Source: Candidatus Krumholzibacteriota bacterium (lineage in GTDB: Bacteria > Krumholzibacteriota > Krumholzibacteriia > LZORAL124-64-63). Taken from it: 29,978 nucleotides of DNA. The position numbers and the translations under genes are program-made. The notes beneath the pieces are model-generated. The model did not search any database. It was not told the DNA's origin and saw only the letters and a list, made by a program, of their open reading frames with translations. Of this stretch, positions 8,843 through 26,591 are shown in pieces; position 1 is the stretch's first letter; the number at the start of each line of letters is the position of its first letter. Where the stretch lies: contig JBDLKA010000037.1 of NCBI GenBank assembly GCA_039714075.1, positions 1 through 29,978 on the forward strand, written 5' to 3'.

Positions 8843-9282
8843 GATACCCCTTCCCCGTCGTCCGGCCCGGGAGCCGTCTGGTCCACGTAGTTCTCGAAGG
8901 CGTTGGGAATCAGTTCATCGAGGGTGAACCGGTGAACGACGCCCGTGGCGCCCTGCTCCCCGGCGATCAGAACCGTCAGGTCCCGGCCGAACTCCAGCAG
9001 GAACTGCCGGCAGGCCCCGCACGGCGGCGTGGGCGCCTGGCCGTCGGCACAGATGGCGATGGCGCTGAAACTCGTCTCACCTTCGGCCACCGCCCGACAC
9101 GCGGCCGAGCGTTCGGCGCAGATGGACAGCCCGATGCTGGCGTTCTCCACGTTGGTTCCCGGATAGACCGTGCCGCTTTTCCCCAGCAGCGCGGCGCCCA
9201 CCCGGAAACCCGAATAGGGCGAATGGCTGTGCCGGCGGGCTTCGCAGGCGGCCGCAACCAGTTGCTGCAAAGTATCATTCAT
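8839..9282 (-). CDS. cdd: cytidine deaminase (homotetrameric type), 147 aa
   Basis: Motifs SPYSGFRVGAA, GTNVENAS, zinc ligands CAE and PCGACRQ. Start reassigned to ATG 9282 (ATGA overlap with the deoB stop, AGGAAAGGA upstream). Confidence 0.95.
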   Translation of the reverse strand: MNDTLQQLVAAACEARRHSHSPYSGFRVGAALLGKSGTVYPGTNVENASIGLSICAERSAACRAVAEGETSFSAIAICADGQAPTPPCGACRQFLLEFGRDLTVLIAGEQGATGVVHRFTLDELIPNAFENYVDQTAPGPDDGEGVS

Positions 9283-10466
9283 GATGAAAGTCCTTTCCTG
9301 GTTTCCGGCAGGAAACTGGTGCCCTTGCGCGTCGGGGCGCTGCCGAAAAAGTCGGCCAGGGTGGCCGCCACGTCCATGAATCCCACGCGTGTCCCGAGGT
9401 CCCGTCCCCCGGCAGCACCGGCCATATAGGCCAGCAGCGGCACGTGCTCCCGCGAGTGGTCCGTGCTCACGGTGGTGGGGTCGTTGCCGTGATCCGCGGT
9501 CATGATCAACAAGGTGCCGGTGGCCAGTCCTTCGAGATACGGCCCCAGCCAGCGGTCGAAATCCTCCAGGCCCTGTTTCATCCCTTCCGGATCGTTCCGG
9601 TGGCCCCACAGCATGTCGAAGTCGACCAGATTGAGCAACAGCAGAGTGTCCCGTTCTTTCGAGGCCGCGGTCAACCGGGCCAGTTGCTCCATGCCCTCGG
9701 GATTGCTCTTGGACGGAAAGGTTTCATCGATGCCGACCCCGGCATACAGATCGTATATCTTGCCGATGGAAAGCACCCGCACCCCGTGGTCCTGCAGGTC
9801 GGTCAGCAGCAGGCCGCGCGGTGGATCCAGGGCGTAGTCGTGGCGGTAGGGCGTCCGTTCGTAAGCGCCCGCAGCTCCGGTGAAGGGGCGGGCGATGACC
9901 CGGCTGACCTGATGGGGCGGCACCAGCATGTCCCGGGCGATTTCACAAACCCGGTACAACTCGTCCAGGTCGCAGACCTCGTCGTGGGCGGCAATCTGGA
10001 ACACGCTGTCGGCGGAAGTGTAGACGATCAGTTTCCCTGTCCGGCGATGTTCGTCACCCAGTTCCTTGATGATGTCGGTGCCGCTGGCCGCCTTGTTGCC
10101 CATCACCCCGTAGCCGGAAAGACGGGAAAACTCATCGATGACCTCGGGGGGAAATCCGTCGGGGTAGGTCGGAAAGGGAACCGACGTGACCAGGCCCATC
10201 AATTCCCAGTGACCGGTGGTGGAGTCCTTGCCGGCGGACACTTCTTCCAGCCGGCCGAAGGCGGCTGCGGGGGCCGTGACGGGATCCACCCCCTGGATAC
10301 GGTGGAGATTGCCCAAACCCAGGCCCTGCAGATTGGGGACGTGAAGCCCACCCACCCTGGCCGCCATGTTCGCCAGGGTGTCGCTGCCGGCATCACCGTA
10401 TTCGGCGGCGTCGGGGGCCCCCCCGACACCAAGCCCATCCAGAATAACGAGAATGGCCGTGGCCAT
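9279..10466 (-). CDS. deoB: phosphopentomutase, 395 aa
   Basis: Motifs ILDGLGVG, GKDSTTGHWE, YTSADSVFQIAAH, NLVDFDMLWGHRND and TADHGNDPT...HSRE. Start reassigned to ATG 10466, after the AAGGAG RBS. Confidence 0.96.
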   Translation of the reverse strand: MATAILVILDGLGVGGAPDAAEYGDAGSDTLANMAARVGGLHVPNLQGLGLGNLHRIQGVDPVTAPAAAFGRLEEVSAGKDSTTGHWELMGLVTSVPFPTYPDGFPPEVIDEFSRLSGYGVMGNKAASGTDIIKELGDEHRRTGKLIVYTSADSVFQIAAHDEVCDLDELYRVCEIARDMLVPPHQVSRVIARPFTGAAGAYERTPYRHDYALDPPRGLLLTDLQDHGVRVLSIGKIYDLYAGVGIDETFPSKSNPEGMEQLARLTAASKERDTLLLLNLVDFDMLWGHRNDPEGMKQGLEDFDRWLGPYLEGLATGTLLIMTADHGNDPTTVSTDHSREHVPLLAYMAGAAGGRDLGTRVGFMDVAATLADFFGSAPTRKGTSFLPETRKGLSS

Positions 10467-10501
10467 GAATGATTCTCCTTCGTGGAACGCGATAGGGTTC
10501 A

Positions 10502-10530
10502 AGGGTAGTGGGCCCGGGTGTGTCCGTCAA
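10502..10530 (-). promoter_or_regulatory. putative promoter of deoB-cdd-pdp
   Basis: TTGACG-17 bp-TACCCT on the minus strand. Confidence 0.6.
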
Positions 10531-10540
10531 CAGCTTCACC

Positions 10541-10568
10541 TTGCCACCACTGGACTTCCGGTTAGAAT
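10541..10568 (+). promoter_or_regulatory. putative promoter of rarA-pfkA
   Basis: TTGCCA-16 bp-TAGAAT, ending 7 nt before ATG 10576. Confidence 0.6.
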
Positions 10569-10575
10569 AGGCAAC

Positions 10576-12030
10576 ATGGTAAACGATCTTTTTTCCACCG
10601 ACGACAACAACGGCGACAGCGGGGCCGGGGTCAACGGTTCCGCCGCAAACGGGGCCCCTGCCCCGGACGAGCGGACACCCCTGGCTGACCGGATGCGGCC
10701 GGCCACCCTGGACGAGATGGTCGGGCAGGAGGAACTCCTGGGGCCCCGGGGTCCGTTGCGACTGTTGCTGGAGGGGGACTCCCTGCCCTCACTGCTGCTG
10801 TGGGGACCGCCCGGGTGCGGCAAGACCACCCTGGCCCGCCTGGTGGCCCGGCATTCCCGGGCGCGCTTCCTGGAATACAGCGCGGTGGCGGTCGGTTCCA
10901 GGGAGCTCAAGGCCGTCATGAGCGAAGCCGCAAAACTCAAGCAGGCCACCGGCCAGCGGACCATCCTGTTCCTGGACGAGATCCACCGCTTCAACAAGGC
11001 GCAGCAGGACGCCCTGCTGCCCTGGGTCGAAAGAGGCGACGTCACCCTGATCGGCGCCACCACCGAAAACCCCAGTTTCGAAGTCAACAGCGCCCTCATT
11101 TCACGGACGCGGCTCTTTGTTCTGACGCCGCTGGCGACCGAAGACGTGGGCGTGCTTTTGACCCGGGCCCTGGCCGATCCCCGCGGGCTGGACGGCCGCC
11201 TGGCCATGACCCCCAATGCCATCGCCGCCCTGGCCGAGATGAGCGAGGGGGACGCCCGCGCCGCCCTGGGACAGCTTGAAACCGTGGCCGCGGCGGTGGC
11301 CGCCGGATTCGACAGGGGAACCGAAGGCCGGGACCTGGACGTGGACGCCCTGGCCGAATTGATCAGAACCCGGGCCGCCCGTTTCGACAAGGCGGGCGAG
11401 GAACATTTCAACATCATTTCGGCCCTGCACAAATCCATGCGCAACAGCGATGTCCAGGCCGCCCTGTACTGGATGACCCGCATGCTCGAAGGCGGCGAGG
11501 ACCCTCTGTATATCGCGCGCCGCCTGGTCCGGTTCGCCAGCGAAGATGTCGGTCTGGCCGATCCCGAAGCCCTGCGCCATACCCTGGCCGCCCGGGACGC
11601 GGTCCATTTCATCGGCATGCCCGAGGGCGCCCTGGCCCTGGCCCAGGCCGTGGTCTATCTGGCCCTGTCCCCCAAGAGCAACGCCCTGTACAAGGCCTAC
11701 GGGCGCACCTCGAAAGAGGTCGCCAAGGGACACAACCCGCCGGTGCCGATGCATCTGCGCAACGCCCCCACCAAGCTGATGAAGAACCTGGGCTTCGGCC
11801 AGGGCTACGTCTACGCCCACGACACCGACGAGGGCATCGGGCGAATGAGCTGTCTGCCGGACAGCCTGCGGGGGACGGATTATTACCGACCGGTAGCCAA
11901 GGGATTCGAGACCGAACTGGCCGCCCGCATGGAGCAGATCCGCCGGTGGCACGCCCGCCGGCAAAGCGGCCAGGCAACCGAAGACCACCCTGATTCGGAC
12001 CACCCTGACCATGAACCGGGAGACACCTGA
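10576..12030 (+). CDS. rarA: replication-associated recombination protein A (RarA/MgsA AAA+ ATPase), about 484 aa
   Basis: Motifs PLADRMRP, Walker A GPPGCGKTT, Walker B LFLDEIHRFNKAQQD, GATTENP, ISALHKSMR, ASEDVGLAD and VPMHLRNAPT. The longer ORF-track start would overlap deoB, so ATG 10576 was chosen. Confidence 0.96.
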   Translation: MVNDLFSTDDNNGDSGAGVNGSAANGAPAPDERTPLADRMRPATLDEMVGQEELLGPRGPLRLLLEGDSLPSLLLWGPPGCGKTTLARLVARHSRARFLEYSAVAVGSRELKAVMSEAAKLKQATGQRTILFLDEIHRFNKAQQDALLPWVERGDVTLIGATTENPSFEVNSALISRTRLFVLTPLATEDVGVLLTRALADPRGLDGRLAMTPNAIAALAEMSEGDARAALGQLETVAAAVAAGFDRGTEGRDLDVDALAELIRTRAARFDKAGEEHFNIISALHKSMRNSDVQAALYWMTRMLEGGEDPLYIARRLVRFASEDVGLADPEALRHTLAARDAVHFIGMPEGALALAQAVVYLALSPKSNALYKAYGRTSKEVAKGHNPPVPMHLRNAPTKLMKNLGFGQGYVYAHDTDEGIGRMSCLPDSLRGTDYYRPVAKGFETELAARMEQIRRWHARRQSGQATEDHPDSDHPDHEPGDT

Positions 12031-13081: not shown

Positions 13082-13972
13082 TCAGATGTCGCGCTCCGAG
13101 CCTTCCACGAAGGTGTTGCCGTACTTGAACCAGTTGATCTTCAGGGTGCCGACCACGTGACCGAGGCCTTCATGCTCGATCTTGCGCTTGGTGTATTCGT
13201 CTTCCAGCGTCAGCATGGAAAAAGAACCGATAAGCGGCAGGTCCTTGTCCTTCAACAGGTGCAGCATCCAATCGGCGCCGTCGGTCAATTCGGTGATCTC
13301 GACGGCGGATTCGGGGAACACGGCGTACCAGGCGAAATCCTCGGCGGCGGGATTGGCCTTCACCGAGTCGGCCAGGTCGTGGCGGGGAACATAGACAAAG
13401 GATTCGATACCGGTCTGGATGGGCTTGAGGTCGCCGTCCTCTTCCTCGGGCAGGAAGGTGGAGCCGGCTTCCTTCAGGTCCTTGGTCTTCCAACCGAGTT
13501 CGGGCAGGGGCGCGCCCGGGGTTTCCAGATCGACCGCACCGGCACGCAGCAGGTTGGGCATGGTGTAATTGGCGGGCACGGCCAGGCTGTCCGCCTCGAT
13601 GACACCGTTCCGTTTGATCCGCTGGATCACGAGGTGTGTCGGGGAGGGCGAGAACGTCTTTCTCACACCCAGCAGGGTCCCGGCCAGATTCCGGTAGTTG
13701 TGCTCGAGATCCTCGCCGACCAGGAACTCCAGGAGGTTACCGTCGCGCACGATGGCCGTGTTGCCGCGGACGTATTCGAATTCAGGAGCATCGATTTCGA
13801 ACAGGAAATCGGTGCTGAGGGTATCACCACGGGTGACCCTGCGGAGGGAGTCGTAGACGTAGGGATCCACTTCTTCCTTTTTTCCACAACCGGTAAGACC
13901 GATGATAGACACAGCCAGCAGGCCGAGCAGCATGACTGAAACCCAGCGACGCGCGGAAGAAACACCGAACAT
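13082..13972 (-). CDS. hypothetical lipoprotein, 296 aa
   Basis: GGGAGG RBS before ATG 13972. Signal peptide with a basic N-region, hydrophobic core and lipobox LTG-C. The mature region is acidic and globular-looking. The ORF-track extension to 14632 overlaps the next gene and was discarded. Confidence 0.85.
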   Translation of the reverse strand: MFGVSSARRWVSVMLLGLLAVSIIGLTGCGKKEEVDPYVYDSLRRVTRGDTLSTDFLFEIDAPEFEYVRGNTAIVRDGNLLEFLVGEDLEHNYRNLAGTLLGVRKTFSPSPTHLVIQRIKRNGVIEADSLAVPANYTMPNLLRAGAVDLETPGAPLPELGWKTKDLKEAGSTFLPEEEDGDLKPIQTGIESFVYVPRHDLADSVKANPAAEDFAWYAVFPESAVEITELTDGADWMLHLLKDKDLPLIGSFSMLTLEDEYTKRKIEHEGLGHVVGTLKINWFKYGNTFVEGSERDI

Positions 13973-14040
13973 GAACCAACCTCCCAAAAGGTATGCTCCT
14001 GACCCTGCAATCGGGACGCAAGGCCACAATTTCCGGACAT

Positions 14041-14068
14041 TATTATGGCCGGACAGGAAAACCGTCAA
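14041..14068 (-). promoter_or_regulatory. putative promoter of the lipoprotein gene
   Basis: TTGACG followed 15-18 bp later by CATAATAAT. The exact -10 register is ambiguous. Confidence 0.4.
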
Positions 14069-14184
14069 CAATTCCCTTTGACCCCATGAAATTGGGGTAT
14101 CCGGGGACAAAAAGCAAATGCATTCCCAAGGTGGCCGGGCGCCGGGCTTCGCCGTCCCCTTAATCCCCATCCGGCAAGGGAATA

Positions 14185-14850
14185 TCAAAGTCCCGGCAGC
14201 CTCCTGACGACCTCCAGGACATCTCTCTGGCTCGGCAGGGCCCCATCCCAGAGGGACTGGAAAACCTGCCAGTGGTCGGGCAGAAGAATGCCCGCGAGGG
14301 AAAAAATCCGGGCGAAACGACCCCTGCGTTCGTCCAGCGGATAACCCGGCAGCCCATGACGGGCCAGGCGGCCGTCCACGTGGACCGCCCAGGCTTCGGC
14401 GAAGGCCTCGGCCAGCGCCGCGGGAAGATTCCTGCCCGTCACTTCCCCACGGACCACGTCCCTGGCCGTCAAAAGGTGGTGATGGAGATAAACCGCCGCC
14501 CTGTCCGGGGAAAAACCTTCGGCCGCGCCGACGGAAACCTCCCGCGGCGCGGGAGACTGCTCCCAGACCTCGGGTATGGGCTGGACGGCATCCCGGGGGC
14601 GGGCGGAAGGATCGAAACAATTCCCGTGGCAAAACAGACCCAGTACCGGCAGGTCATCCGGCCCCGCCCCGGCCTCCAGCCGGTACCAGGCATCACCGTC
14701 ACCCGGCAAGTCGTCCCCGTAGATGCGGATGCCCGAAAAATCCTCGCCCAGGTCCAGGGCCCTGCCGGCAGCCTGGGCCAAGGGGACCAGATCCGCCGCC
14801 AGATCCCCGGCCAGACCCACGCAATCGACCGAAAGAGACGCTGGGGTCAC
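14185..14850 (-). CDS. hypothetical protein, 221 aa
   Basis: The GTG start lies 6 nt after the tnaA stop and the ORF fills the gap on the operon strand. Composition is protein-like, with aromatic-rich segments (YLHHHLLTARD, WAVHVDGRL, HWQVFQSLW). Confidence 0.75.
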   Translation of the reverse strand: MTPASLSVDCVGLAGDLAADLVPLAQAAGRALDLGEDFSGIRIYGDDLPGDGDAWYRLEAGAGPDDLPVLGLFCHGNCFDPSARPRDAVQPIPEVWEQSPAPREVSVGAAEGFSPDRAAVYLHHHLLTARDVVRGEVTGRNLPAALAEAFAEAWAVHVDGRLARHGLPGYPLDERRGRFARIFSLAGILLPDHWQVFQSLWDGALPSQRDVLEVVRRLPGL

Positions 14851-14856: not shown

Positions 14857-16257
14857 TCAACCTTTCGCAATCATCCGGCCGCCGCCCGCGGGCTGCAGCT
14901 TGGCCGTGAAATGACGCAGCGCGGGCGGCTCCCAGGTTATTTCGAGGCCGCGCAGCCGCGACCCGATCTCCATGACCCGGGCGCAGGACTCGGCCACGTA
15001 ATCCAACTGGGTGTGGGTATAAACGCGGCGGGGAATCGCCAGGCGGACCAGTTCCATGGCCGGGTGCACGATCTCACCGCTGTCGGGGTCCTTGTGATCG
15101 AACATGAGGCTGCCGATTTCGACCCCCCGCACGCCCCCTTCCAGATACAAGGCCGCGGTGAACACCTGGGCCGGGAATTCGGACTGGGGTATGTGGGGCA
15201 GGGCTTTCCTGGCATCCAGATACACCGCGTGGCCGCCGGTCGGTTTCAGGTGGGGCACTCCCAGTTCGTCCAGCCGCCGTCCCAGTCGGGCCACCTGGCC
15301 GATGCGGTAGGCCAGGTAATCGGGGTCCAGCACCTCGCGCAGTCCCTGGGCCACGGCGGCCAGATCACGACCGGCCAACCCGCCGTAGGTGGGAAAACCT
15401 TCCCTCAGGATAAGCAGGTTGGTGACTTTCTGCGCCCACTGTTCGTCGTCCAGGCAAAGGAAGCCGCCGATGTTGACCAGGGCGTCCTTCTTGGCGCTCA
15501 TGGTGCACCCCTGGGCCAGGGCGAACATCTCACGGCAGATTTCCTTGATGTCCTTGTCCCGGTAACCTTCTTCGCGCTGCTGGATGAACCAGGCGTTCTC
15601 CGCGAAACGGCAGGCGTCGTAGATCAGGGGCACGCCTTTTTCCCGGCAAAACTCCGAGACCTCGCGCATGTTCGCCATGGACACCGGCTGTCCGCCGCCG
15701 CTGTTGTTGGTGATGGTCAACATGACGAAGGGGATGCGCTCGACGCCGTACTTTTCGAAGGCCGCGGCTAGTTTGGGCAGGGACATGTTGCCCTTGAACG
15801 GGGCCTCCACGGCGGGATCGAGGCCTTCGGGGCCGATGCAATCCAGGGCGATGGCTCCGGTGTGTTCTACGTTGGCCCGCGTGGTGTCGAAATGGATGTT
15901 GTTGGGCACCACGTCGCCGGGCTTCAGCGTGACGGTGAAAAGCATGCCCTCGGCCGCGCGACCCTGATGGGTGGGGATCACGTGCTGGTAGCCGAAAATA
16001 TCCTTGATGGTGCTTTCGAACTCGGCATAGGAATTACTGCAGGCGTAGGCTTCGTCGCCGCTCATCAGGGCGGCCCACTGCAGATCGCTCATGGCGCTGG
16101 TGCCGCTGTCGGTCAGCAGGTCGACGTAGATGGCGGATGACGGGATCTTGAACACGTTGTACCCGGCCGCGCGGAGATAGGTCACCCGTTCTTCCCGACT
16201 GATCCGCTGAATCTTTTCGACAACCTTGATGCGGTAGGGTTCGAAGGGAAGGTCCAT
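14857..16257 (-). CDS. tnaA: tryptophanase (PLP-dependent tryptophan indole-lyase), 466 aa
   Basis: Motifs DLLTDSGT, GDEAY, THQGRAAE, FDTT and the PLP-lysine motif MSAKKD. It has the TnaA-type residues EGFPTYGGL, VEIGS and LRHFTA rather than the TPL-type EGMPSYGG, MERG and LRFFTA. GAGGAG RBS. Confidence 0.9.
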   Translation of the reverse strand: MDLPFEPYRIKVVEKIQRISREERVTYLRAAGYNVFKIPSSAIYVDLLTDSGTSAMSDLQWAALMSGDEAYACSNSYAEFESTIKDIFGYQHVIPTHQGRAAEGMLFTVTLKPGDVVPNNIHFDTTRANVEHTGAIALDCIGPEGLDPAVEAPFKGNMSLPKLAAAFEKYGVERIPFVMLTITNNSGGGQPVSMANMREVSEFCREKGVPLIYDACRFAENAWFIQQREEGYRDKDIKEICREMFALAQGCTMSAKKDALVNIGGFLCLDDEQWAQKVTNLLILREGFPTYGGLAGRDLAAVAQGLREVLDPDYLAYRIGQVARLGRRLDELGVPHLKPTGGHAVYLDARKALPHIPQSEFPAQVFTAALYLEGGVRGVEIGSLMFDHKDPDSGEIVHPAMELVRLAIPRRVYTHTQLDYVAESCARVMEIGSRLRGLEITWEPPALRHFTAKLQPAGGGRMIAKG

Positions 16258-16358: not shown

Positions 16359-19300
16359 TCATTCGCCGGACTCGGAGGGCAGGGGGGATTTTTCCTGGTA
16401 AAGGACCAGCAAGCTGTCGGTAACCCTGACCAGGGATTCGTAATGCTGCCGCAGCGGTTCGGTTCCCAGGCACAGGTACGCGGCGCCCGCCATGGCACCT
16501 CCCAGGGGCCGCGATGCCGAGGTCAACACCGCCAGTGGCCGGCGGTAGCGGGGACCCCGGACCGCCACATCGTCCATCATTCCGTACCACCAGGCTTCCC
16601 ACAGGGGCACGGTCAGAAGGGCGCTCAGGGGTTCGCTCCCGTATTGTTCCAGCAGGCGCAGGATCCGGTCACGGGCGGCCGGGCGGGCCATGAAGGTATT
16701 GGCCCACGGGGTGGGCGCCACCAGGTCGGCAAATTCGCCGAGGGTGATCGCGGGGTCGGGGTCCTGGTCCCCGGACCAGTCCAGCCAGGCCCGGCCGGCC
16801 TCGGGCCCGAGAAGCTTCCCGGTCATAAGGTCGACGTCCTTGTTGCCCGGGGCCTCCGTTTCCCCGGCCGGAGCATCCGGTTGCGGTTCGGACCCGGCGG
16901 CATCCGGCGGTGAACCGAAGGTTTCGTCCAGCAGACCGCAAAGGGCGAGATGATCCGTGGCCGCGGCGAGCAGTTCCCTGGGGCCGGGCAGGAACAGGCT
17001 CTCCAGGCGGGTCTCCAGGACGGCCAGCCAGCCCCGGTCGCGGATCGACGATCCCAGGTATTCCAGGTCGCCGGGCATGGGCGCGGTGATCCGCAACGGG
17101 GCCGTCAACCTGCCCGCCTCGTGTTCATGGACGACCCGGGAAAGACACTGGTCCAGGTTGGCCGCGTAGTCGGAGATGAGAATCCCCTTGTCCCGCCGCC
17201 GGACTCCCCCACCCTGGAATTCGGGGGCCACCAGCTTGCGGGTTTCGGACCAGAGCTTCCGGGCCGCCTTGCGTTGCCCGGGAAGTTCGACGACATCGTC
17301 GGCCCGCGGAGTGGTCAGGAACAGATGTTCCCAGGGTTCGCGCGCCGCCGCCGGATCCACCGTCATGATCAGGCGGCGCCCGCGGCCGGTCTGGGCGATG
17401 CGATACCGTGTTTCGGAAGCGAATCTCTGCGCTTCACAGATGACCACCACCGACGAAGAGGAATCCGCCGGGAAGGCCCCCGCTGCAGGTTCATCCGCCT
17501 GGGTTGCTGAAGCCAGTGGCACCCTGACGTCCAGGGGGCCGGTCAGGCCCAGGCGCAGAAAATCCCGGCAGACCATGGCGGCCACCGCCTGATCGGGACA
17601 GTAGATGGTGAGTTCGGGAACCTCACCGCCGCCCGCACCGCATTTCAACAGGCCGCGCGCCAGGGCTTCATGACGGCCGGATCCAAAGACCCCCTTGAGC
17701 ACCAGAAAGGTCGGACCCTCGTCGGCCAGGGCAAGGTCCGCCACCCGGGCGACCACCGCGTCCAGATCGTCCTTTTGTTCCGCACCCCCGGCTAGCAGCG
17801 ATCGCAACCCCCGCCTTCCCCGTCCGGACTCGGCGGCATCACCATATCGAACCACCGCGCCGGCGCCGGCGCGGGTGGAACCCGGATAACCGGCGGCCGC
17901 TTCCTCGCGCACGAGTTCCCAGCCGTGCGACCGGTTCCGGACGGTCCGGCTTTCGGCCACGGTCAACAGGTCCACCAGGTGAACGGCGCCCTGGCAGGGA
18001 GGTCCGATCCAGCGCCAGAACCCGAGGGCGGCGCCCAGGCCCAGGAAGTAACTTTCTTCATCCCGCAGGTCCGTCAAACCCGTTTCCACCAGGAAGCCGT
18101 CCCCCGTTTCCAGGGCACCGGCCATGACGTCCGCGATACGATTCCGGAACACCCTGAGGCTCTGCACCAACTCCGGCACGATCTCGGCAGAAGGACCCCG
18201 GCATCCCACCAGACGCTGGGTCGAGTGGATAAGTCCCCGGGGGCAGACATAGGTCAACCCCACGGCGGCGGCCGGGAGGCCCTCGCCGAGAGACTCCCCG
18301 TTCCATCCGTGCCAAATGAGGAAACAATCCAGCAGAGCCACTTCGGATGCGTCGATCCTGGCGGGGGGATACTCCATATCGATCCAGTTGAGGGACCCGG
18401 CTCCGCCCGCTCCCAGCCACAGGGGAAGCATGACGCCCAGATTCCGCTCCAAGTGGTCCAGGGAATTCTCCAGGTCGGCGAATCTGCGGGGGATCAAAAG
18501 GGCGTGCCCCTGGCCGTGGCGGGCGGCATCAGGATGCTCCGATCCCGCGGAGGAAAGAGAGTCGCCGGCCAGCCTCGCCGCCCAGCGCAACAGGCGCACG
18601 CCCTCGGCGACATCGTCCGGGGCAAGACCGGCCAGATGGCCCAGCCAGGCCAGCGACAGCAGTTGGCGTCCCGGGGGCAGCGATTCTCCCTGGGGATCAT
18701 CTTCCGAACCGGATTGGGTGCTGGTCAGGGCACGCAGACGGGGCAGCAGGGCCTGAAGACGCCGCACAACCGTTGCGGCGCTTCGGGCCCGACCGCAATC
18801 CAGGCAGGGCCCGGCCCCCGCCGGGGCAACGGAGGGACCTGAAGGGCTCACCTGTTCCCCGGCGCCCGGCAGTAATTCGGCGCCACAGGCCGAGGACAGG
18901 AAACGGACCCAGGACGGGTCCAGTCCGCGGCTGAACAGAAGGACGGTTTCGGCCCCGCAATCCAGGATCGAACGAAGCGCCAAAGCGGTTTCCTGGGCTT
19001 CCTGTTCGGGACCGGGTTTCCATTCCGAGACATCCCCGGCCATGATCACCGCCGGGGTATACGCCGCCAGGAATGCTTCCAGATCGGGATCGGAAAAGTC
19101 CTCGGGCTCGACCCAGACCACCGGTGCGGGAACCTGCTCCCGGCGTTCGGCGGACCAGACCGAAAGGCCGGACATGCCGGCCGCCGTCACCAGGTCGGCG
19201 GCGCCCGCGGGCATGGTGTCGGCCACAAGCAGAATCCATTCCTCCACCTGCCCCCGCTCCCAGGCGGCCACCAGGCGGTCCGCCATTCCCCGCCAGACAG

Positions 19301-22300
19301 GGGTCTCGTCGCCCAGTAGAAGATGCACTCCCGGGCCGGGGGTTGAAACTTTCTGCGGGCCCTGGGTCGGGGCGCCATCAGCAGCGGCAAGGTCACCGGA
19401 ATCCCGGGTCATCAGCCACCCGTTGACCGAGGCCTGGATTTTACCGTCCACCGGCTGTCGGCCCCGGGGATCGGCCCCGGGAAGGGTCAGGGTGCGCCCG
19501 ATCCCCTCGGTGGCCAGGCGGGCGATTTCCCCGGTGGATCGTGGCGGCGCGGGTTCGTCACCGGGGGCCGGGACCTTGCTATTCAGCAGGAGCCGCCACC
19601 AGCGCGTATCCAGAACAGCCACGGTATCCCAGGGTCCCGCCAGGCAGGCGGCCATTTCAAGTGAGCAGATTTTCCTGCGCCAGGCAAAAAAGATCTCCCG
19701 TTCGGCATCGGCCCGCACCCAATCGGCACGGGTGTCCGAATTCGCGGCCGGAACCCCCTCGCTTTCGAGACTGGCCAGGACCGGAACGGCCAATAATCCG
19801 CCCGCCCGGAAATCATCAGGCTCCTCGCCGCCGACGGGGTCCAGGAAATTCCAGGCGGCGATTTCCAGGTCCACCTCGGCCCTGCTGACGGAGGCCCAGA
19901 AGTCGGCGGACCGTCCGGCGGCCGGCAGCAGAACCCAGCCCCCACCGGATTCGGCGAAGGCGCGCTGCACCCAGGTCGCCTGACCGGCCAGGGCCTCGCC
20001 CGCCAACCGGCGGGCCTCGGGCTGGACACCCTTGTCCGCCAGCAGCAGGGACGGCGGATTGCCGTCGGTCAGGGAAAGACAATAGGGACTGCCGAAGACC
20101 TGCAGCCATTCGCCCAACAATCCCTCCAGTTCCGAACGCAGCCAGACCGATCCCGTCAACAGGGAAAGGTGACGGCGCCCCCGGGTATGAAGCAGGGCGT
20201 GGATTTCCTGTATGCCGGGTCCCCCGTTGCGCAGCAGGTTCCAATGGATGGCGGCGCTGTCCAGAAACACCCAGGAGGCGTCACTGCCCTCGAAAACTCC
20301 CCACAGGCTGTCCAGCCTTTCCGGGGTCACCGCCAGATGATCCACCGGCCCGGCCACCAGCCCCGCCTTGCGGACCCTCTGGCTGAACTGCCCGGCCCAG
20401 GTGTCCAACTGCCCCTCGGCATCAAGCTGGGGCTCTTCCCGGGCCAGCATTTCGACCGCGGCCTCATAGCGGTCGTACAATGGGAATCGTCCCGGAGTCC
20501 GCGGCCGCACCTGCCGGAAATCCAGCAGGTCGCCGTTGTGGGATTCGACCAGCCGCAGCCAGTGGAAGATCGGCAGGAGGTCGTCTTCATCCGGACGCAC
20601 ATCCGTCAGGAGGGACTCCAGGAACTCCAGGGCCGCGGACAGTGAGTGGACGGTCCCCGCCGGCGGGATCAGAGTCACCGGACCGATGACACCGCCGGCC
20701 ACCTGCGCCAGGGCTTCCAGCCTGTCCAGGCGATCCAGCACCACCCGCCACTTCCGGGTGCCGTCACCCCAGGCGGCCAGAACGGCCGTCGGATCCCCCG
20801 TCGAGACGATGGCCAGATCATTCCGGCCCAGATCCGGCCTCGGGCCGGGATCCCCCGCAGGAGAACCTTCCCGCCGCGATGACGGACCGGTCGCCGACCA
20901 GCCGAAGGGGTCGGGCCGGGTCCATAGAAGCGGCAGGGTCCACGGCTCAAAGGAGGAATCGAGTCCGGAACCTCCGTGGGAATCCATATTGATGAATTCG
21001 TACAGGAAGCGGGCCGCAGCGTCCCCCCGGCGGGCCAGTTCGCCGACACCCGCGCGCAGGGCCGGGTCTCCGGCAACCACCCGGTTGCGGACGGCCAGCC
21101 AGCCCAGGCCGGCAATCAGGGCGCCCGCGGCCGGCCCCTCTTCCCACGCTTCCAGCAAGGAGGAACTTCTGGGGGGCTCCAACTCCGGATGTCCCGCAGC
21201 GGGATCCCATCCCCCCCGCCAGGGTCCGGTCTCGGCCAGGCACAACCCCAGGACGGTTTCCCGGTCCAGCCCGTCTTCCGGCAACCGGCTTTCCATGGCC
21301 GCCACCATGAAATCGTGGACCGTCCAGCGGGCCGGCGCCTCCTGCCAGGCGGATTTCACAAAGGAGCGCACATCCTCCGCAAAGGCCACGACCCGGCCTT
21401 CGCAGGGAGCCAGGAATTCCCCGATGGGTTCCAGGCCGTCCCCCTGACGCCAGTACGCCATGTCCCTGGGTTCGTTGTCCCACCAGAAGATGATGGTGAC
21501 GCCACCGGCTGAGCCCAGGGCCAGGGAGGCCCAGGCCAAAGACGAATCGGCCGCCGGCCCCAGGGACGGTCGGCGGTGAAGAATCCGGCTTTGGGCAGCC
21601 TGGAGACGGGAAGCAAGCTCGCCCGCGGGGGCCGGTCCGCCGGCTGCCATGACGGTAAGAGCTTCCCCGTAACGCGGGACGGGGAAATGCCCCGCATCGG
21701 TGTTGCCCAGAAGTTCGAGCAGCCGCACGCGGGCTTCTTCGGCCCGGGGCCCGGTCACGGGTCCGACTCCCAGATAGGCGCGATACAGTTCGACGCTTTC
21801 GGCGGCCCTGCCCAGCAGGCGGTCCGCGGTCACGGCCTCGAGCCAGCTTCTCTCCTCGGCCAGCCGACTGGTCGATCCGAAGTACTCGGGCTGCACGAGT
21901 TGCAGCACCACCCGCGCCCATTCCTCGGCTTCGGGCGAGCCCCGGTTCAACCGGCCATGTTCGATGAACACATCGAACAGTTCGCCGCCCTTGTGCGCGA
22001 GCCAGAGACGGTCCTCCTCGGTCAAAGGCAGGTCGTGGCGGACGAGGTTGAAATCAAAGGGCCGCCCGGTGCGGCCGGCGGTCCGGAACAGTCCCTTGAT
22101 CAGGGGCACCGCCGAAGAGGGTTCCTCCTGGAAAATCCGGCTGCGGGCCACCAGGAACAAGGCGGCTTCCAGTTTGGGCTGATTGGTGACCGGATCATCC
22201 TCCGGGCGCAGTTCGGCCACCCGGACACCGTCCCTGACAACATGTTCTCCCTGCTCCAGGAATCTGCGGCGGAACTCGATGGTGCGGCGCGGCCAACGGC

Positions 22301-22529
22301 CGGGGGCGTGCGGCGGCGTCTCCCGGTTGCGGGCGGCGTGTTTGAGCAGGCTCTTGAAACCGTCGGTGATTTTTTCGGAAAAGAACACACGCCCCGGTGA
22401 GCCGTCACGGCGCCTGGAGGCTTCATGAAAAAGACGTTCCCCATGCGCAAAATCGCCGGCCGCCAGGGCTTCCTCGGCGGCGATGAGCATTTTCCAGTAA
22501 TTCAGTTCGTGCGTCCGATCGTTTTCCAT
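16359..22529 (-). CDS. giant hypothetical protein, 2056 aa; predicted TPR-like + degenerate exonuclease + degenerate DinG + degenerate RecQ + degenerate UvrD modules
   Basis: Uninterrupted 6.2-kb ORF that fills the space between the S8 protease gene and tnaA on the same strand. Ordered remnants of SF2 and SF1 helicase motifs were read by eye (see findings). The CDS itself is well supported; the domain call is inference. Confidence 0.85.
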   Translation of the reverse strand: MENDRTHELNYWKMLIAAEEALAAGDFAHGERLFHEASRRRDGSPGRVFFSEKITDGFKSLLKHAARNRETPPHAPGRWPRRTIEFRRRFLEQGEHVVRDGVRVAELRPEDDPVTNQPKLEAALFLVARSRIFQEEPSSAVPLIKGLFRTAGRTGRPFDFNLVRHDLPLTEEDRLWLAHKGGELFDVFIEHGRLNRGSPEAEEWARVVLQLVQPEYFGSTSRLAEERSWLEAVTADRLLGRAAESVELYRAYLGVGPVTGPRAEEARVRLLELLGNTDAGHFPVPRYGEALTVMAAGGPAPAGELASRLQAAQSRILHRRPSLGPAADSSLAWASLALGSAGGVTIIFWWDNEPRDMAYWRQGDGLEPIGEFLAPCEGRVVAFAEDVRSFVKSAWQEAPARWTVHDFMVAAMESRLPEDGLDRETVLGLCLAETGPWRGGWDPAAGHPELEPPRSSSLLEAWEEGPAAGALIAGLGWLAVRNRVVAGDPALRAGVGELARRGDAAARFLYEFINMDSHGGSGLDSSFEPWTLPLLWTRPDPFGWSATGPSSRREGSPAGDPGPRPDLGRNDLAIVSTGDPTAVLAAWGDGTRKWRVVLDRLDRLEALAQVAGGVIGPVTLIPPAGTVHSLSAALEFLESLLTDVRPDEDDLLPIFHWLRLVESHNGDLLDFRQVRPRTPGRFPLYDRYEAAVEMLAREEPQLDAEGQLDTWAGQFSQRVRKAGLVAGPVDHLAVTPERLDSLWGVFEGSDASWVFLDSAAIHWNLLRNGGPGIQEIHALLHTRGRRHLSLLTGSVWLRSELEGLLGEWLQVFGSPYCLSLTDGNPPSLLLADKGVQPEARRLAGEALAGQATWVQRAFAESGGGWVLLPAAGRSADFWASVSRAEVDLEIAAWNFLDPVGGEEPDDFRAGGLLAVPVLASLESEGVPAANSDTRADWVRADAEREIFFAWRRKICSLEMAACLAGPWDTVAVLDTRWWRLLLNSKVPAPGDEPAPPRSTGEIARLATEGIGRTLTLPGADPRGRQPVDGKIQASVNGWLMTRDSGDLAAADGAPTQGPQKVSTPGPGVHLLLGDETPVWRGMADRLVAAWERGQVEEWILLVADTMPAGAADLVTAAGMSGLSVWSAERREQVPAPVVWVEPEDFSDPDLEAFLAAYTPAVIMAGDVSEWKPGPEQEAQETALALRSILDCGAETVLLFSRGLDPSWVRFLSSACGAELLPGAGEQVSPSGPSVAPAGAGPCLDCGRARSAATVVRRLQALLPRLRALTSTQSGSEDDPQGESLPPGRQLLSLAWLGHLAGLAPDDVAEGVRLLRWAARLAGDSLSSAGSEHPDAARHGQGHALLIPRRFADLENSLDHLERNLGVMLPLWLGAGGAGSLNWIDMEYPPARIDASEVALLDCFLIWHGWNGESLGEGLPAAAVGLTYVCPRGLIHSTQRLVGCRGPSAEIVPELVQSLRVFRNRIADVMAGALETGDGFLVETGLTDLRDEESYFLGLGAALGFWRWIGPPCQGAVHLVDLLTVAESRTVRNRSHGWELVREEAAAGYPGSTRAGAGAVVRYGDAAESGRGRRGLRSLLAGGAEQKDDLDAVVARVADLALADEGPTFLVLKGVFGSGRHEALARGLLKCGAGGGEVPELTIYCPDQAVAAMVCRDFLRLGLTGPLDVRVPLASATQADEPAAGAFPADSSSSVVVICEAQRFASETRYRIAQTGRGRRLIMTVDPAAAREPWEHLFLTTPRADDVVELPGQRKAARKLWSETRKLVAPEFQGGGVRRRDKGILISDYAANLDQCLSRVVHEHEAGRLTAPLRITAPMPGDLEYLGSSIRDRGWLAVLETRLESLFLPGPRELLAAATDHLALCGLLDETFGSPPDAAGSEPQPDAPAGETEAPGNKDVDLMTGKLLGPEAGRAWLDWSGDQDPDPAITLGEFADLVAPTPWANTFMARPAARDRILRLLEQYGSEPLSALLTVPLWEAWWYGMMDDVAVRGPRYRRPLAVLTSASRPLGGAMAGAAYLCLGTEPLRQHYESLVRVTDSLLVLYQEKSPLPSESGE

Positions 22530-22601: not shown

Positions 22602-25600
22602 TCAGCGGGTCAGGACCACCCTTGAAACGAGCGGCCTGCCGGCGCCCCGCACCACCGCCAGATAGGTCCCGGCAGCCAAGGGGCGACCGCGGCTGTCGTT
22701 TCCATCCCACTTGAGGGAATCCGTGGCAATACCCGACCCCAGAACGCGGACCCGGCGGCCGCGCAGGTCGAAAATCTCCAGTTTCAAAGCCGGAGAGGGC
22801 GAAACCCCGGTCAAACGAAACTGGAAATTTCCTCCGCCGGGATTGGGGAACGCCACCAGTTGCCGGGTTCCACCTGCGCCGACGGGAACCGGGGATACGG
22901 CTTCCCGCAACGGGCAGGCCCCGCTGTTGCGGCCATCGCCCCGGGCGGCGGTCCAGGCGGTTTGGGAACTCTTGAGCGAGCGGACAGGCTGGATCCCCAC
23001 CTCATGCGACAGGATATCCACCCGCAGGTAGACGTCGTCCTCCACGGGAATGAGCATGGCGCCGGCGCTGCCGTACATGGGGTCGGTCTTGCCGCCGGCC
23101 GTCAAGGGCTCCCTTCGAACCAAAGGGCGGTCCAAGCTGGACGGACTCAACCAGGTCGTGCAGGCACCGGGCAAAGAGGTGACTCCAATGAGGATTTCGG
23201 ACCAGTCCACACTTACCAGGGAATTGACGTCAGTCCCGCTGCTTCCCTGAAAATTCCAGGCCAGCGGGGCGGGCAGCAATATGTGATCCAGGGTCAATAG
23301 TCCCTGGGAAGTCGAAGCCTTCACCCGAAACCCGGGCAGAACGGAAGAGGTGGTCACCCCGGTTGCAGCCAGGGAACCATGACCCAGAACCCATTCATCC
23401 TGGTCGCCGAATAGTCCGTTATCCGCCAGCCCGGTCAGGGTCACCCGCAGGTCGCCGGTCTGGTAACCACCGGCCACCACCGCCGCGGACAGCGCCAACC
23501 AACTCCCCCCCTCCGGTGCCGGGACCGTCAAATCGTCACCCGTCCCGGGTTGTCCCGTTGCGTCCAGGACCCGCATGGCCAACCGCCCGGTCACGGGATC
23601 CAGGGCCGGCAGGATGATTTCGTGAAACCCGTCATCGTCCAGATCACACAGGACCGGAGCCACCTCGAGAGCCACCCCGAGATCCCGCGGCCAACCGGGC
23701 AGGGCGTTCAGGTTCTCGTCGAGAGCCGTGACATGGCCGTCGGCAAAAGCAATGACCAGGGACTCTCCCGCTCCCGCCACCAGCACTCCCGCGGCGGGAG
23801 TCAAGGGCAGGCTGTGTCCCAGGTCGGCCTGTGCTTCCAGGACCGGGCCGTGGGACCAGCTGCGGACCATTCCCAGCTTGTCCACCGCGGCGACCCTGCG
23901 GTTTCCGCCGGAGGTCACGATACCCACGGGGGTGGTCAGGTTCCGGTTAAGGGTCAGGGCGACTTCCTGGATCGCCCCGGAACCGGCAAAGAAATAGATC
24001 GAACCGAAGTCCGAGGCCACCACGATTTCATCGCCGGGCACGCCATCCATATCCCAGACCAGGGGCTGGGTCAAACCTCCCTGGCTGGAACTGTGGGGAA
24101 AAACGAACACCGGCCAGCCCGGCCGGAAGTCCCCGTTCGTGTCCAGGGCGCTGAGTGATCTGGCGCCGAGGTCCACCGTAACGCGGGAGGGAATAATCAG
24201 GGTCGGACCGCTCAGCCCGGCCAGGTTTCCGGAATTGGGCGCGCCGGTGGCCAGGCCGGGCAAACTGGCCGCCGCGGCCTGGGCCGGGAAGGAATCGGCC
24301 TCCCTGATTTTCAGGGAAACTGTTCCCTGCCCGGACTTGCGCTTGACCACCATCACCAACCAATTGCCGGGATCGGGCCTCAGATACGTGAATTCCGAAA
24401 CGCCCGGACCGTTGGCGTCCCGGTGCCGGACCTGGTCAACCGTGGCCGGATCATCCAGCCACCGCGGGTCGGCAACTTCCAGCACGACGTCCAGGCTGCC
24501 GGAGGGAACCGCCTCGATCAGATACCGGATCTGCGGGCTGGTGATCAAGCGGCGGGCGACAACCGGTTTTTCCCAGTCGCTGGTCAGGGTGTCCAACTGG
24601 TCCCGCCCCGGCATCAACGGTAAAAGAGCGGCCTCGGCCGCCGCGTCGACCCGTAGCGTTCCCCAGCCCCGCACCGCGTCCGGACCCACGGGAAAGGACA
24701 GGGGAACCTGACCGGTGCCCGCATCATTTTCGGCCAGCACGACCGGAGCCGCGGTCAGTTTCAAAAGACCCGCCCGGGTCAAAGCCGAATGGCCGTCTGC
24801 CGGTAGGATGATCCCGTTTTCCAGCAGGGCCTCGTCCAGCAATTGCAGGGCGCCCGCGACATGGGCGGCGGCCAGACTGGTGCCGAAACGCCCGCTGTAG
24901 GTATCGTTGGGTTCGTTGTCCGCGGCGATGATCCGCCCTCCGCCACCGAGCAAACCCCCTCCGGGCGCCAGCAGGTCGGGCTTGCCCGGCACCGCCAGTC
25001 CCCGACTGCTGAAGGCCGAAACGGCCCCGGATCCGTTCACGCTGCCGACGGTCACCACTTCGGGCAGGGAGGCCGGAAAGCCCAGACCGGGATGGTCGAC
25101 GCCATCGTTGCCCGCAGCGGCAACGGGCAGCATCCCCGCGGCGACAAAAGCGTTCATGGCCGTGCTGATTCCCGCGTCGACATCCCAGTTGACCGCGGTC
25201 AGGACGGTGCGGATCCGGTAGATGTCCCGATGATCGAGAGTCCAGGCGCAGGCAGCCAGGAAATCACCAGCCCAGGCATGCCAGGTCTGGTCGAAATCGT
25301 AGAATTTGACCACGGTAAGCCGGCTGCCGGACGCCAGGCCCCGGTAGGCCGGATCCACCCGGCCGCTACCAACGACCACCGAGGCCAGCGCCGTCCCGTG
25401 GTAGTGGTAGTCCCAGGGACCGGCCGCCAGGGGAAAATCGTCCGTCACATCCTGCCACCCGACGACCTTGTAGCCCTCGAACAACGGCCAGCCGTTATCC
25501 GCCGGAAACCAGTCGCTCGCATCCCCCACGACCGGCGGAGGGCCATCCTTGTCGTCATCCGGATAATCACCCAGATCACCGTGTGCGGTATCACAGCCCG

Positions 25601-26336
25601 AATCCAGGATGGCCACGGAAGAGGACCAGTCGTCCCCGAGTTGCCACCGGCCCGTTTCGAGTCTGGCCGCGCCCGCCAGGTGGCGGCTGTCCGCCAGGGC
25701 AGGCACGCCGTCACGGTCAATCATGATGCGCCCGCCGGGCCGGTCGGCGAGAAAGGCGCGCAGACCTGTTTCGTTTCCCGCCAGGACGGCGACCCCGCCG
25801 AAACGGTCCACCGAATGCAGGAGACGGCAATCGCCAACCCGGGACGCGCCCTCCATCGCGCGGACCACGCCCTGCCTGCCGGCACCCAGGCAGATCAAGC
25901 GCAGATTGCCGGCCTGCCAACTGCCCCCGGCGGGTTCCATCCCCGCGGGGAAAGCGCTTTCTCCGGACATTCCGTCGGCAGCGGCGGCTGCCCGCAGAGG
26001 CGCGGAGACCGCGGCGGCGCGCAGGTCGTCAAAACCCACCCGGCCGTCCAACCACGCATCAAGGAGGTCCTCCAGACCGTTACCGTTTTCATCGAGCCGG
26101 GAATCAAAGCCCGCGGTGAAGTCCGACGGGGCGGCGTGGGCGACGGCGATCAGGGCCCTGTCCCCCGCCGCCGGCAGGATCCCCACCAGCATCAGAAAGA
26201 GGAGGGCGAACCCGATGCTCCGTGGGGATCCCAACCGACAGATCAAGGCAGCGCGAGGGGCCGGGGACGGGTTCGAGCGGAAACAGGAACCATCCGGGAC
26301 CTTGTGTCGGGCCAGAACTGTGCGGTTTGCGGGCAT
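22602..26336 (-). CDS. secreted subtilisin-like S8 serine peptidase with FG-GAP-like repeats and C-terminal FlgD-Ig/sorting domain, about 1244 aa (start uncertain)
   Basis: Catalytic triad VAILDSG / HYHGTALA / GTSLAAAHVAG and oxyanion AAGND. Hydrophobic signal-like segment IGFALLFLMLVGIL. Repeats WDMDGVPGDEIV and DLDDDGFHEII. C-terminus FPNP...IFDLRGRRVRVL...WDGNDSRGRPLAAGTYL. Confidence 0.9.
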   Translation of the reverse strand: MPANRTVLARHKVPDGSCFRSNPSPAPRAALICRLGSPRSIGFALLFLMLVGILPAAGDRALIAVAHAAPSDFTAGFDSRLDENGNGLEDLLDAWLDGRVGFDDLRAAAVSAPLRAAAAADGMSGESAFPAGMEPAGGSWQAGNLRLICLGAGRQGVVRAMEGASRVGDCRLLHSVDRFGGVAVLAGNETGLRAFLADRPGGRIMIDRDGVPALADSRHLAGAARLETGRWQLGDDWSSSVAILDSGCDTAHGDLGDYPDDDKDGPPPVVGDASDWFPADNGWPLFEGYKVVGWQDVTDDFPLAAGPWDYHYHGTALASVVVGSGRVDPAYRGLASGSRLTVVKFYDFDQTWHAWAGDFLAACAWTLDHRDIYRIRTVLTAVNWDVDAGISTAMNAFVAAGMLPVAAAGNDGVDHPGLGFPASLPEVVTVGSVNGSGAVSAFSSRGLAVPGKPDLLAPGGGLLGGGGRIIAADNEPNDTYSGRFGTSLAAAHVAGALQLLDEALLENGIILPADGHSALTRAGLLKLTAAPVVLAENDAGTGQVPLSFPVGPDAVRGWGTLRVDAAAEAALLPLMPGRDQLDTLTSDWEKPVVARRLITSPQIRYLIEAVPSGSLDVVLEVADPRWLDDPATVDQVRHRDANGPGVSEFTYLRPDPGNWLVMVVKRKSGQGTVSLKIREADSFPAQAAAASLPGLATGAPNSGNLAGLSGPTLIIPSRVTVDLGARSLSALDTNGDFRPGWPVFVFPHSSSQGGLTQPLVWDMDGVPGDEIVVASDFGSIYFFAGSGAIQEVALTLNRNLTTPVGIVTSGGNRRVAAVDKLGMVRSWSHGPVLEAQADLGHSLPLTPAAGVLVAGAGESLVIAFADGHVTALDENLNALPGWPRDLGVALEVAPVLCDLDDDGFHEIILPALDPVTGRLAMRVLDATGQPGTGDDLTVPAPEGGSWLALSAAVVAGGYQTGDLRVTLTGLADNGLFGDQDEWVLGHGSLAATGVTTSSVLPGFRVKASTSQGLLTLDHILLPAPLAWNFQGSSGTDVNSLVSVDWSEILIGVTSLPGACTTWLSPSSLDRPLVRREPLTAGGKTDPMYGSAGAMLIPVEDDVYLRVDILSHEVGIQPVRSLKSSQTAWTAARGDGRNSGACPLREAVSPVPVGAGGTRQLVAFPNPGGGNFQFRLTGVSPSPALKLEIFDLRGRRVRVLGSGIATDSLKWDGNDSRGRPLAAGTYLAVVRGAGRPLVSRVVLTR

Positions 26337-26405
26337 CAACGTCCTAAGGGATGTTAAAGTGACTCCCCGGATTACCATCCGGGAAAGGGAAGTCAACCCA
26401 TATTG

Positions 26406-26530
26406 ACCTTCCCTACGCAACCGCGCGGCCGGGGTTTCGACCGGAAAACCGCAGGCGGTTGTGTTGGTGGGGTTTCTCGAGGTGCCGACCTGAACCTGGG
26501 CATTTCCGAATCGCATGAAGTTAGGGAGGT
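26406..26530 (+). ncRNA. candidate structured RNA of unrecognised class
   Basis: Closing stem 26406-26415/26522-26530 encloses two hairpins, 26415-26424/26455-26464 and 26477-26486/26499-26509. The G-U pairs form only on the plus strand. No known family recognised. Confidence 0.3.
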
Positions 26531-26591
26531 GGCTGATCCGCCGCAAATGGCCGTTCCGCCAGGCGGCCCGCCGATGGACAGGTCGGCCCGG

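Follow-up and report, generated by a model that had tools for sequence, protein, structure and literature searches.

What is encoded by a 6.2-kb gene that recalls helicases in places and lacks both a canonical Walker A Lys and a conserved DExx motif? This question is raised by a 29,978-nucleotide stretch of the Candidatus Krumholzibacteriota contig JBDLKA010000037.1 (assembly GCA_039714075.1), which is called the window here and whose minus strand holds an intact, ATG-started open reading frame (ORF) of this kind. Its product of 2,056 amino acids (AA), P0001, is referred to as the giant protein, and all residue numbers refer to it. In an original prediction made by eye, this protein was described as a TPR-like N-terminus and a DEDDh-exonuclease-like part followed by catalytically dead remnants of DinG, RecQ and UvrD in series. 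The analysis presented here points to a different composition. With a probability of about 0.5, the protein is a phylum-restricted giant that ends in a remodelled UvrD-type fold, which would serve as a non-hydrolysing binding module on a lineage-specific scaffold.

The motif content of the giant protein agrees with the initial description. A regular-expression scan of the whole protein found no GK[ST], and the pattern G..G.G[KR] occurs only once, as GVFGSGR at residue 1613. The patterns DE.[HDQ] and hydrophobic-run-DE (hhhhDE) are also found only once each, at residues 647 and 1599, in both cases in columns that are unconserved in the family, and a conserved DExx is absent according to the scan and the family columns. 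The single CxxC is located at residue 1242. By eye, neither a signal peptide nor a membrane segment is evident, and the protein looks cytoplasmic.

The giant ORF is real and is kept by selection instead of decaying, as had been proposed, because full-length orthologues are present in 58 assemblies and the overall ratio of non-synonymous to synonymous substitution rates (dN/dS) is 0.17-0.27. A word-indexed protein search detected 93 relatives, nearly all of about 1,970-2,300 AA, which align end to end with 29-81% identity. They are annotated as hypothetical or are nameless, and existing names indicate Candidatus Krumholzibacteria. A scan in which each GTDB species was represented by a single genome gave 135 pattern matches; 58 of them encode a relative, and these originate from 58 different assemblies with one copy each. 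Phage and plasmid relatives were not found by tblastn in 50,697 phage and 72,556 plasmid records. The family is confined to the candidate phylum Krumholzibacteriota, single-copy and vertically inherited. Some of the 58 assemblies carry the depositor labels Fibrobacteraceae, Gemmatimonadales or 'bacterium'.

The dN/dS values were calculated with the Nei-Gojobori method against five orthologues and are below 0.40 in every one of five segments; the segment with the P-loop and the UvrD-like part has the lowest value in four of the five comparisons (0.08-0.23), and all these ratios are rough since dS is saturated at about 1.0-1.8. In a 50-member alignment, 266 of the 2,056 positions are at least 90% identical, with the densest invariance at residues 561-860 (23.7% of positions). 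A decaying pseudogene or a chance ORF in GC-rich DNA is therefore practically excluded: the DNA of this region, with a G+C content of 65-69%, does yield long spurious ORFs on both strands, but orthologues of the same length with identities down to about 31%, the dN/dS values, the number of conserved positions and a confident AlphaFold2 model are contrary to such an origin.

This model covers residues 1066-2056 and was built on a 39-sequence alignment. It has a mean predicted local distance difference test (pLDDT) score of 84.0 and a predicted template modelling score (pTM) of 0.85, with 591 of 991 residues at a pLDDT of at least 90. A Foldseek search of the model against the PDB resulted in 59 matches at E<=0.001, led by E. 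coli UvrD (2is6_B, E 5.5e-9, probability 1.00) and followed by D. radiodurans UvrD. The matches of the UvrD/PcrA/Rep group also include 4c30, 1pjr and 1uaa, the E-values of UvrD, PcrA and Rep range from 5.5e-9 to 1e-5, and the further matches include AddA, M. tuberculosis UvrD1, SLFN11/14, GajB, AdnA/AdnB and RecB. The Foldseek probability is 1.00 for the UvrD, PcrA, Rep, SLFN, GajB and Adn chains and 0.77-1.00 for the long AddA and RecB alignments, while the UvrD alignments extend over about 630-660 columns, which corresponds to the full target length. As shown by this predicted structure, the last ~470 residues of the giant protein would adopt a UvrD/PcrA/Rep-type fold of superfamily 1A (SF1A) with two RecA-like domains. 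Thus, the UvrD-like remnants that had been placed at about 17730-16380 of the window (residues ~1600-2050) are supported by Foldseek, with E-values down to 5.5e-9, and by motif-like strings that are conserved throughout the family.

For the assignment to SF1A, the presence of two RecA-like domains (1A and 2A) with 1B/2B insertions is indicated by the model and by Foldseek, at TM-scores of 0.25/0.36. In the secondary structure derived from the model with DSSP, a strand (1607-1612) leads into a glycine loop (1613-1619) and a helix (1619-1634), and a second strand (1640-1643) precedes the helix with CPDxAxAA. The strand at 1694-1697 ends in C-E-A-Q and that at 1719-1724 ends in D1725. A second alpha/beta unit is modelled at about 1783-1838; residues 1839-1990 form an insertion of helices that includes a disordered loop, and the last two strands hold residues that are invariant in the 50 members (C2020, G2022, E2024, H2029) and R2035-V-T-D.

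The nucleotide site of the UvrD-like module is strongly conserved in an altered form. According to the 50-member alignment, from which all site counts were taken, the glycines of the Walker-A-like loop are kept (G1613 in 50/50, G1616 in 48/50, G1618 in 49/50), and the loop GVFGSGRH aligns with Walker A of RecD, UvrD and HelD. The position of the Walker A Lys, 1619, is occupied by Arg in 46 members, Lys in three and Ala in one, and the following Ser/Thr site at 1620 is His in 33/50 and Thr in 2/50. At the position of the Walker B Asp, 1698, Cys (30), Leu (13), Ala (5) and Met (2) are found and Asp in no member; the adjacent E1699 is retained in 45/50 and Q1701 in 46/50. The motif-Ia-like string CPDQAVAA aligns with 'APTGKAA' of RecD in the hhalign alignment of 22.6% probability. 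Residues 2020-2038 make up the C-terminal strands of the second RecA-like domain at the position of motif V/VI, and their alignment to motif VI of HelD and RecD is colinear and not significant. Of the sequence signatures of SF1A, neither the Walker A pattern GxxxxGK[ST] nor the motif II pattern DExQ(D) is present, and the module is not recognized by the Pfam families UvrD-helicase, AAA_19 and UvrD_C.

In a midpoint-rooted FastTree phylogeny of 42 full-length sequences, Arg is found at the Walker A Lys position in 40 of the 42 tips. Since Arg is spread over all deep clades and the one tip with Lys, L050, is nested among Arg-bearing relatives, the remodelled site is the ancestral and maintained state of the family and not scattered decay. 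The question of whether homologues share the loss of motifs, raised with the original prediction, is answered in the affirmative, as the substituted site is common to the family. However, the description of the modules as all catalytically dead was too strong: the altered site, including Arg (46/50), Glu (45/50), Gln (46/50) and Asp1725 (50/50), is highly conserved, which indicates a functional ligand site of a non-canonical kind. In P0085, the protein of L050, Asp also replaces the Walker B Glu.

P-loop NTPases in which Lys is exchanged for Arg and the Ser/Thr and Asp that coordinate Mg are lost normally still bind phosphate, but their hydrolysis is crippled. Most likely, the UvrD-like module would still bind a phosphate-bearing ligand, either a nucleotide or a nucleic acid, and would do so without canonical ATP hydrolysis. 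By analogy, it may act as a binding, recognition or anchoring part, comparable to the helicase domains that have lost their activity in AddB and RecC. The UvrD-like module would terminate a lineage-specific scaffold of about 1,590 residues, whose most conserved part, residues 561-860, may carry a separate activity.

The main rival explanation assumes an active C-terminal module, a non-canonical NTPase or translocase in which Arg1619 would replace the Lys and Glu1699 would still be the catalytic base. The giant would then be a motor specific to this lineage, with a function in, for instance, RNA metabolism, repair or the restart of replication. This explanation is possible but not probable. The constraint on G1613, R1619, E1699, Q1701 and D1725, the lowest dN/dS of this segment in four of five comparisons, the three members with Lys and the retention of the whole SF1A architecture are all consistent with an active enzyme, whereas the His at the Ser/Thr site, with Thr in only two members, the lack of the Walker B Asp in all members and the usual effect of a Lys-to-Arg exchange on hydrolysis argue against it.

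Several points weigh against the interpretation of the giant protein as ending in a non-hydrolysing, UvrD-type binding module. The loss of hydrolysis is deduced from motif chemistry alone, and a working enzyme would explain equally well why the altered site is so strongly conserved. Three members, P0085 (L050), P0089 and P0092, have Lys at the Walker A position, in each case not followed by Ser/Thr. The TM-scores reported by Foldseek are low (0.25 by query and 0.36 by target), with a root-mean-square deviation of 15-18 A, so that the match to UvrD is a local 3Di and sequence similarity of a multi-domain protein and not a rigid superposition. Low TM-scores are to be expected if the domains of such a protein are oriented differently in query and target. 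The Foldseek output comes without residue ranges, and the core at ~1590-2056 was placed from DSSP and motif positions. Furthermore, no sequence method assigns the C-terminal module significantly to any helicase family, the best hhalign probability being 22.6%. For residues 1-1065, the interpretation draws on sequence searches only. Finally, the synteny around the gene, described below, spans the whole region, so that adjacency does not tie the giant functionally to its neighbours.

At the sequence level, the giant protein is nearly invisible to collections of known families. It matches no Pfam family at E<=1 and nothing in NCBIfam, PADLOC and PHROGs, and phmmer detected no match in the PDB. 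For 22 further members, no helicase family was found in Pfam, and only sub-threshold zinc-ribbon matches were obtained, in three of them; P0089 has a weak Cas3e P-loop match in PADLOC (E 3.4e-4). The ESM Atlas provided nothing usable for residues 1560-2056 or 560-1000. A family profile of the N-terminal half has no matches at E<=10 among all PDB sequences, and that of the C-terminal half has no helicase match in the noise-free range, with RFC5 and HelD appearing as P-loop noise at E 0.4-2.7. With the C-terminal profile, the word-indexed search retrieved 23 proteins, all of them fragments of the same family and none with a Pfam domain. In a comparison made with hhalign, eight segments of the giant protein were aligned to E. 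coli DnaQ, DinG, RecQ, UvrD, RecD, HelD and Rep, resulting in 56 comparisons. Probabilities above 5% were obtained only for segment 1591-1860 (RecD 22.6%, UvrD 10%, HelD 7.5%), and the RecD alignment covers Walker A and motif Ia. Outside the P-loop segment, the probability is at most 1.7% everywhere. A profile of seven SF1B sequences (E. coli RecD and six phage RecD/Dda-like helicases) reached 17-22%, restricted to the P-loop, and did not exceed the single templates.

These searches also bear on the model of three helicases and an exonuclease in series, of which the C-terminal UvrD-like module stood and the DinG, RecQ and DnaQ parts were supported by none of the tests performed at the sequence level. 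The part interpreted as DinG-like (residues ~566-980) aligns to DinG with probabilities of 0.2% (561-860) and 0.4% (861-1065), and the DinG/XPD signature is lacking in that there is neither a conserved DExx nor a four-Cys Fe-S cluster, the sole CxxC being a zinc-ribbon remnant. Similarly, the supposed RecQ-like part (residues ~1065-1216) reaches 0.1% for segment 1066-1260, and the supposed DEDDh exonuclease reaches 0.1% for DnaQ against residues 331-560, with no Pfam or PDB match at the sequence level. No more than 4% was reached in any of the 28 pairs of segments compared for internal repeats, and therefore there is no sequence trace of repeated helicase modules. The check by structure prediction, carried out for residues 1066-2056, gave the UvrD/PcrA matches, but no RecQ, DinG or XPD chain is among the matches listed. 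The giant protein does not consist of three helicase remnants in a row, and the complete model of TPR, exonuclease-like and three dead helicase parts is unlikely, although its UvrD-like part was confirmed, residues 1066-1545 are confidently modelled as alpha/beta and remnants of a fold may lack a sequence signal. For annotation, this shows that motif matching by eye over-called two helicases and one exonuclease that no test supports.

The remaining regions of the giant protein contain few recognizable elements. Of the proposed TPR-like N-terminus, only residues ~9-47 resemble one TPR unit, a helical hairpin; a second unit in residues 1-330 and a Pfam TPR match were not found. An exhaustive HMMER profile search with residues 1-1065 against 1.84 billion representatives yielded 88 proteins at E<=0.001, all of them members of the family or fragments thereof, except for one TPR protein, P0184, and no relative of the N-terminal half outside the family was detected by this search. 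The repeats of P0184 match residues 4-40 of the giant protein ten times (E 9.5e-7), while hhalign gives only 5.5%. Within residues 1-330, which are probably mostly helical, 51 positions are at least 90% identical among the 50 members. The most conserved stretch, residues 561-860, includes invariant columns and is rich in His, Asp, Trp and Arg (H656, H664-N-G-D667, D670, W743-G744, D757, H762, H787-L-S789).

The CLDC string at residues 1242-1245 is best understood by comparison with the deep-branch members. All 13 of these carry a full zinc ribbon (CxxC-12-CxxC) within an insertion of 135-195 AA at query residues ~1200-1275. In the crown group, one CxxC is kept in 14/37 members, P0001 among them, and none in 23/37, and the zinc ribbon is reduced (eroded) there. 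Examples of the deep-branch relatives are P0081-P0094, and the corresponding loci are L028, L031, L035, L044, L047-L051, L053, L057 and L058.

The giant gene is part of a conserved array with the order KhpA, RimM, TrmD, RNase HII (RnhB), YraN, S8 peptidase, giant, tryptophanase/tyrosine-phenol-lyase homologue (TnaA), a conserved ORF, PFK, RarA, phosphopentomutase, cytidine deaminase and thymidine phosphorylase. This array is conserved across the family and represents housekeeping synteny. Among the 58 loci, TnaA is found downstream of the giant in 43 and YraN upstream in 36, and RnhB (34), the S8 peptidase (36), PFK (40) and RarA (40) are similarly frequent; most missing neighbours are due to contig ends. 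As the whole neighbourhood is syntenic, adjacency alone is no argument for a functional link, and a partner helicase or nuclease for the giant was not identified in the window. Past the rRNA operon, the window is a bacterial chromosome segment with a G+C content of 62-69%.

This context is also relevant for a role in anti-phage defence, either as a phage decoy or as a GajB-like or Schlafen-like helicase module. GajB (8iud, E 1.1e-5; 8sm3_B) and SLFN11/14 are among the Foldseek matches, but such matches are expected for any UvrD-like fold. PADLOC reported nothing for the giant protein, its flanking genes encode the S8 peptidase and the tryptophanase homologue and no GajA/OLD-type neighbour, and the gene, present as a single copy, has the same housekeeping surroundings in every lineage and lacks phage or plasmid matches. 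Therefore, a defence or decoy function is very unlikely.

Some properties of the neighbouring genes were noted independently of the giant. The S8 peptidase directly upstream is a subtilase of 1,314 AA, the C-terminus of which carries a FlgD_ig / T9SS type A sorting-like domain. In most loci, its gene lies between YraN and the giant, but it is missing there in nine deep-branch loci, where YraN directly adjoins the giant, and so it was apparently inserted into the array at a later time. Immediately downstream, the tryptophanase/tyrosine phenol-lyase homologue matches the subfamily model NF009709 with 669 bits and stays under the equivalog cut-offs of TnaA and TPL. The conserved ORF of up to 516 AA between this homologue and PFK is present in 41/58 loci; it has no Pfam matches and only a sub-threshold NCBIfam match ('lipo-invert tail'), and it is a second family without assigned function in the same array. 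The longest-ORF calls for cytidine deaminase, phosphopentomutase and RarA overlap by 137-331 bases, and their true starts are probably located further downstream, the overlaps being an artefact of ORF extension in high-GC DNA. A promoter and terminator scan gave nothing exceeding the shuffled expectation. The positions of all features are listed in Table 1.

Table 1. Positions of the giant gene, its parts and other features within the window
Feature	Position	Strand	Remark
Whole giant ORF, 2,056 codons + stop	16359-22529	minus	family specific to Krumholzibacteriota
Mostly helical N-terminal region (probably), residues 1-330	21540-22529	minus	crude propensity estimate 48% helix
Single TPR-like helical hairpin NYW..L..A..AL..GDF..AE, residues ~9-47	22389-22505	minus	
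Most conserved stretch, residues 561-860	19950-20849	minus	zone first read as DinG-like
Alpha/beta domain, alternating strands and helices, residues 1066-1220	18870-19334	minus	pLDDT ~86-94; zone first read as RecQ-like
Zinc-ribbon remnant CLDC, residues 1242-1245	18795-18806	minus	model disordered, pLDDT <50 at model residues 160-173
Second alpha/beta and helical region, residues ~1290-1545	17895-18662	minus	confident model, DSSP E224 to H480 (model numbering)
UvrD-like SF1A helicase-fold module (predicted), residues ~1590-2056	16362-17762	minus	model, Foldseek, motifs
Walker-A-like loop GVFGSGRH, residues 1613-1620	17670-17693	minus	Arg at Lys position, His at Ser/Thr position
Motif-Ia-like CPDQAVAA, residues 1644-1651	17577-17600	minus	P1645 49/50, D1646 48/50
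Walker-B-like VVVICEAQR, residues 1694-1702	17424-17450	minus	model strand E629-632 (model numbering)
Motif-III-like RLIMTVDP, residues 1719-1726	17352-17375	minus	D1725 50/50; strand E654-659 (model numbering)
Invariant C2020, G2022, E2024, H2029, then R2035-V-T-D, residues 2020-2038	16416-16472	minus	model strands E948-955 and E971-979
Subtilase (Peptidase_S8)	22602-26546	minus	directly upstream of giant
Tryptophanase/tyrosine phenol-lyase homologue	14857-16257	minus	immediately downstream of giant
Conserved ORF	13082-14632	minus	between PFK and tryptophanase homologue
Overlapping longest-ORF calls	8839-10502 and 10366-12030		cytidine deaminase, phosphopentomutase, RarA
rRNA operon	1-4544	minus	G+C 52-55%, against 62-69% in coding part
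23S rRNA, cut by window end	1-2621	minus	
tRNA-Ala(TGC)	2707-2782	minus	
tRNA-Ile(GAT)	2792-2868	minus	
16S rRNA, complete	2985-4544	minus	

A few copies of the giant gene deviate from the common form. In L045, L046, L056, P0145 and P0158, the gene is split or read through into Arg/Pro-rich out-of-frame stretches. Such copies come from several long-read or low-coverage assemblies and look like assembly frameshifts, not pseudogenes. P0145, in which a YraN domain is joined to the giant, and P0158 seemed to be odd relatives, and both were rejected as fusions or paralogues since they are frameshift-riddled read-throughs.

Compared to known systems, the C-terminal part of the giant protein is closest to UvrD, PcrA and Rep, which are its best structural matches and share the beta-loop-helix topology of the P-loop and a colinear order of the motif-like strings I, Ia, II, III and V/VI. 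In contrast to these helicases, it is not detected by the Pfam families named above and has Arg for the Walker A Lys and Cys, Leu, Ala or Met for the Walker B Asp. In addition, UvrD, PcrA and Rep are proteins of ~650-720 AA, whereas the module of the giant protein comprises ~470 AA and is located C-terminal to ~1,590 residues. GajB and Schlafen-11/14 also have UvrD-like folds that match the giant protein (7zel_A, E 2.4e-6, in addition to the GajB chain 8iud). However, these proteins function in defence or stress and have partners or nuclease domains of their own, while the giant protein is PADLOC-negative, vertically inherited and placed in a housekeeping context.

RecC is known to keep an inactivated SF1-derived helicase domain as a recognition and scaffold part. 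For AddB, an inactivated helicase domain is described in PMC3321194. AddB, RecC and AdnA are SF1-derived folds that lost catalytic motifs and were kept for DNA recognition or as scaffolds; the giant protein resembles them in its predicted fold and in the loss of motifs, and the Foldseek matches of the giant protein include AddA, AdnA/AdnB and RecB. Unlike the giant protein, for which no such components were identified in the window, AddB and RecC partner an active motor subunit and nuclease domains, and the Foldseek matches listed contain neither AddB nor RecC chains.

A more far-reaching interpretation, which is speculative and rather doubtful, is that of a Krumholzibacteriota-specific machine. 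Here, the SF1A module with Arg for Lys and Cys for Asp would be a sensor of nucleic acids or nucleotides that binds its ligand without turnover, mounted on ~1,590 residues of undescribed folds that include the catalytic-looking region at 561-860, and the alpha/beta domains at 1066-1545 could represent another pair of helicases, eroded completely. In that case, this would be a single-chain analogue of helicase-nuclease complexes with one live and one dead part, or an entirely new enzyme.

The giant protein defines a new Pfam-dark protein family with one recognizable part, the remodelled UvrD-type fold. About three quarters of the protein are without a match to known families, the N-terminal half having been searched exhaustively over 1.84 billion proteins, and no publication on the protein was found in the literature on Krumholzibacteria/Krumholzibacteriota as judged by titles and abstracts. 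Non-catalytic helicase folds are known from AddB and RecC; here, a remodelled site was frozen by selection across a phylum, with Arg in all deep clades. The family is thus a natural experiment on a P-loop that stops being an ATPase. Being among the largest genes conserved in a phylum without cultured members, the giant is a well-defined target for structural and biochemical discovery.

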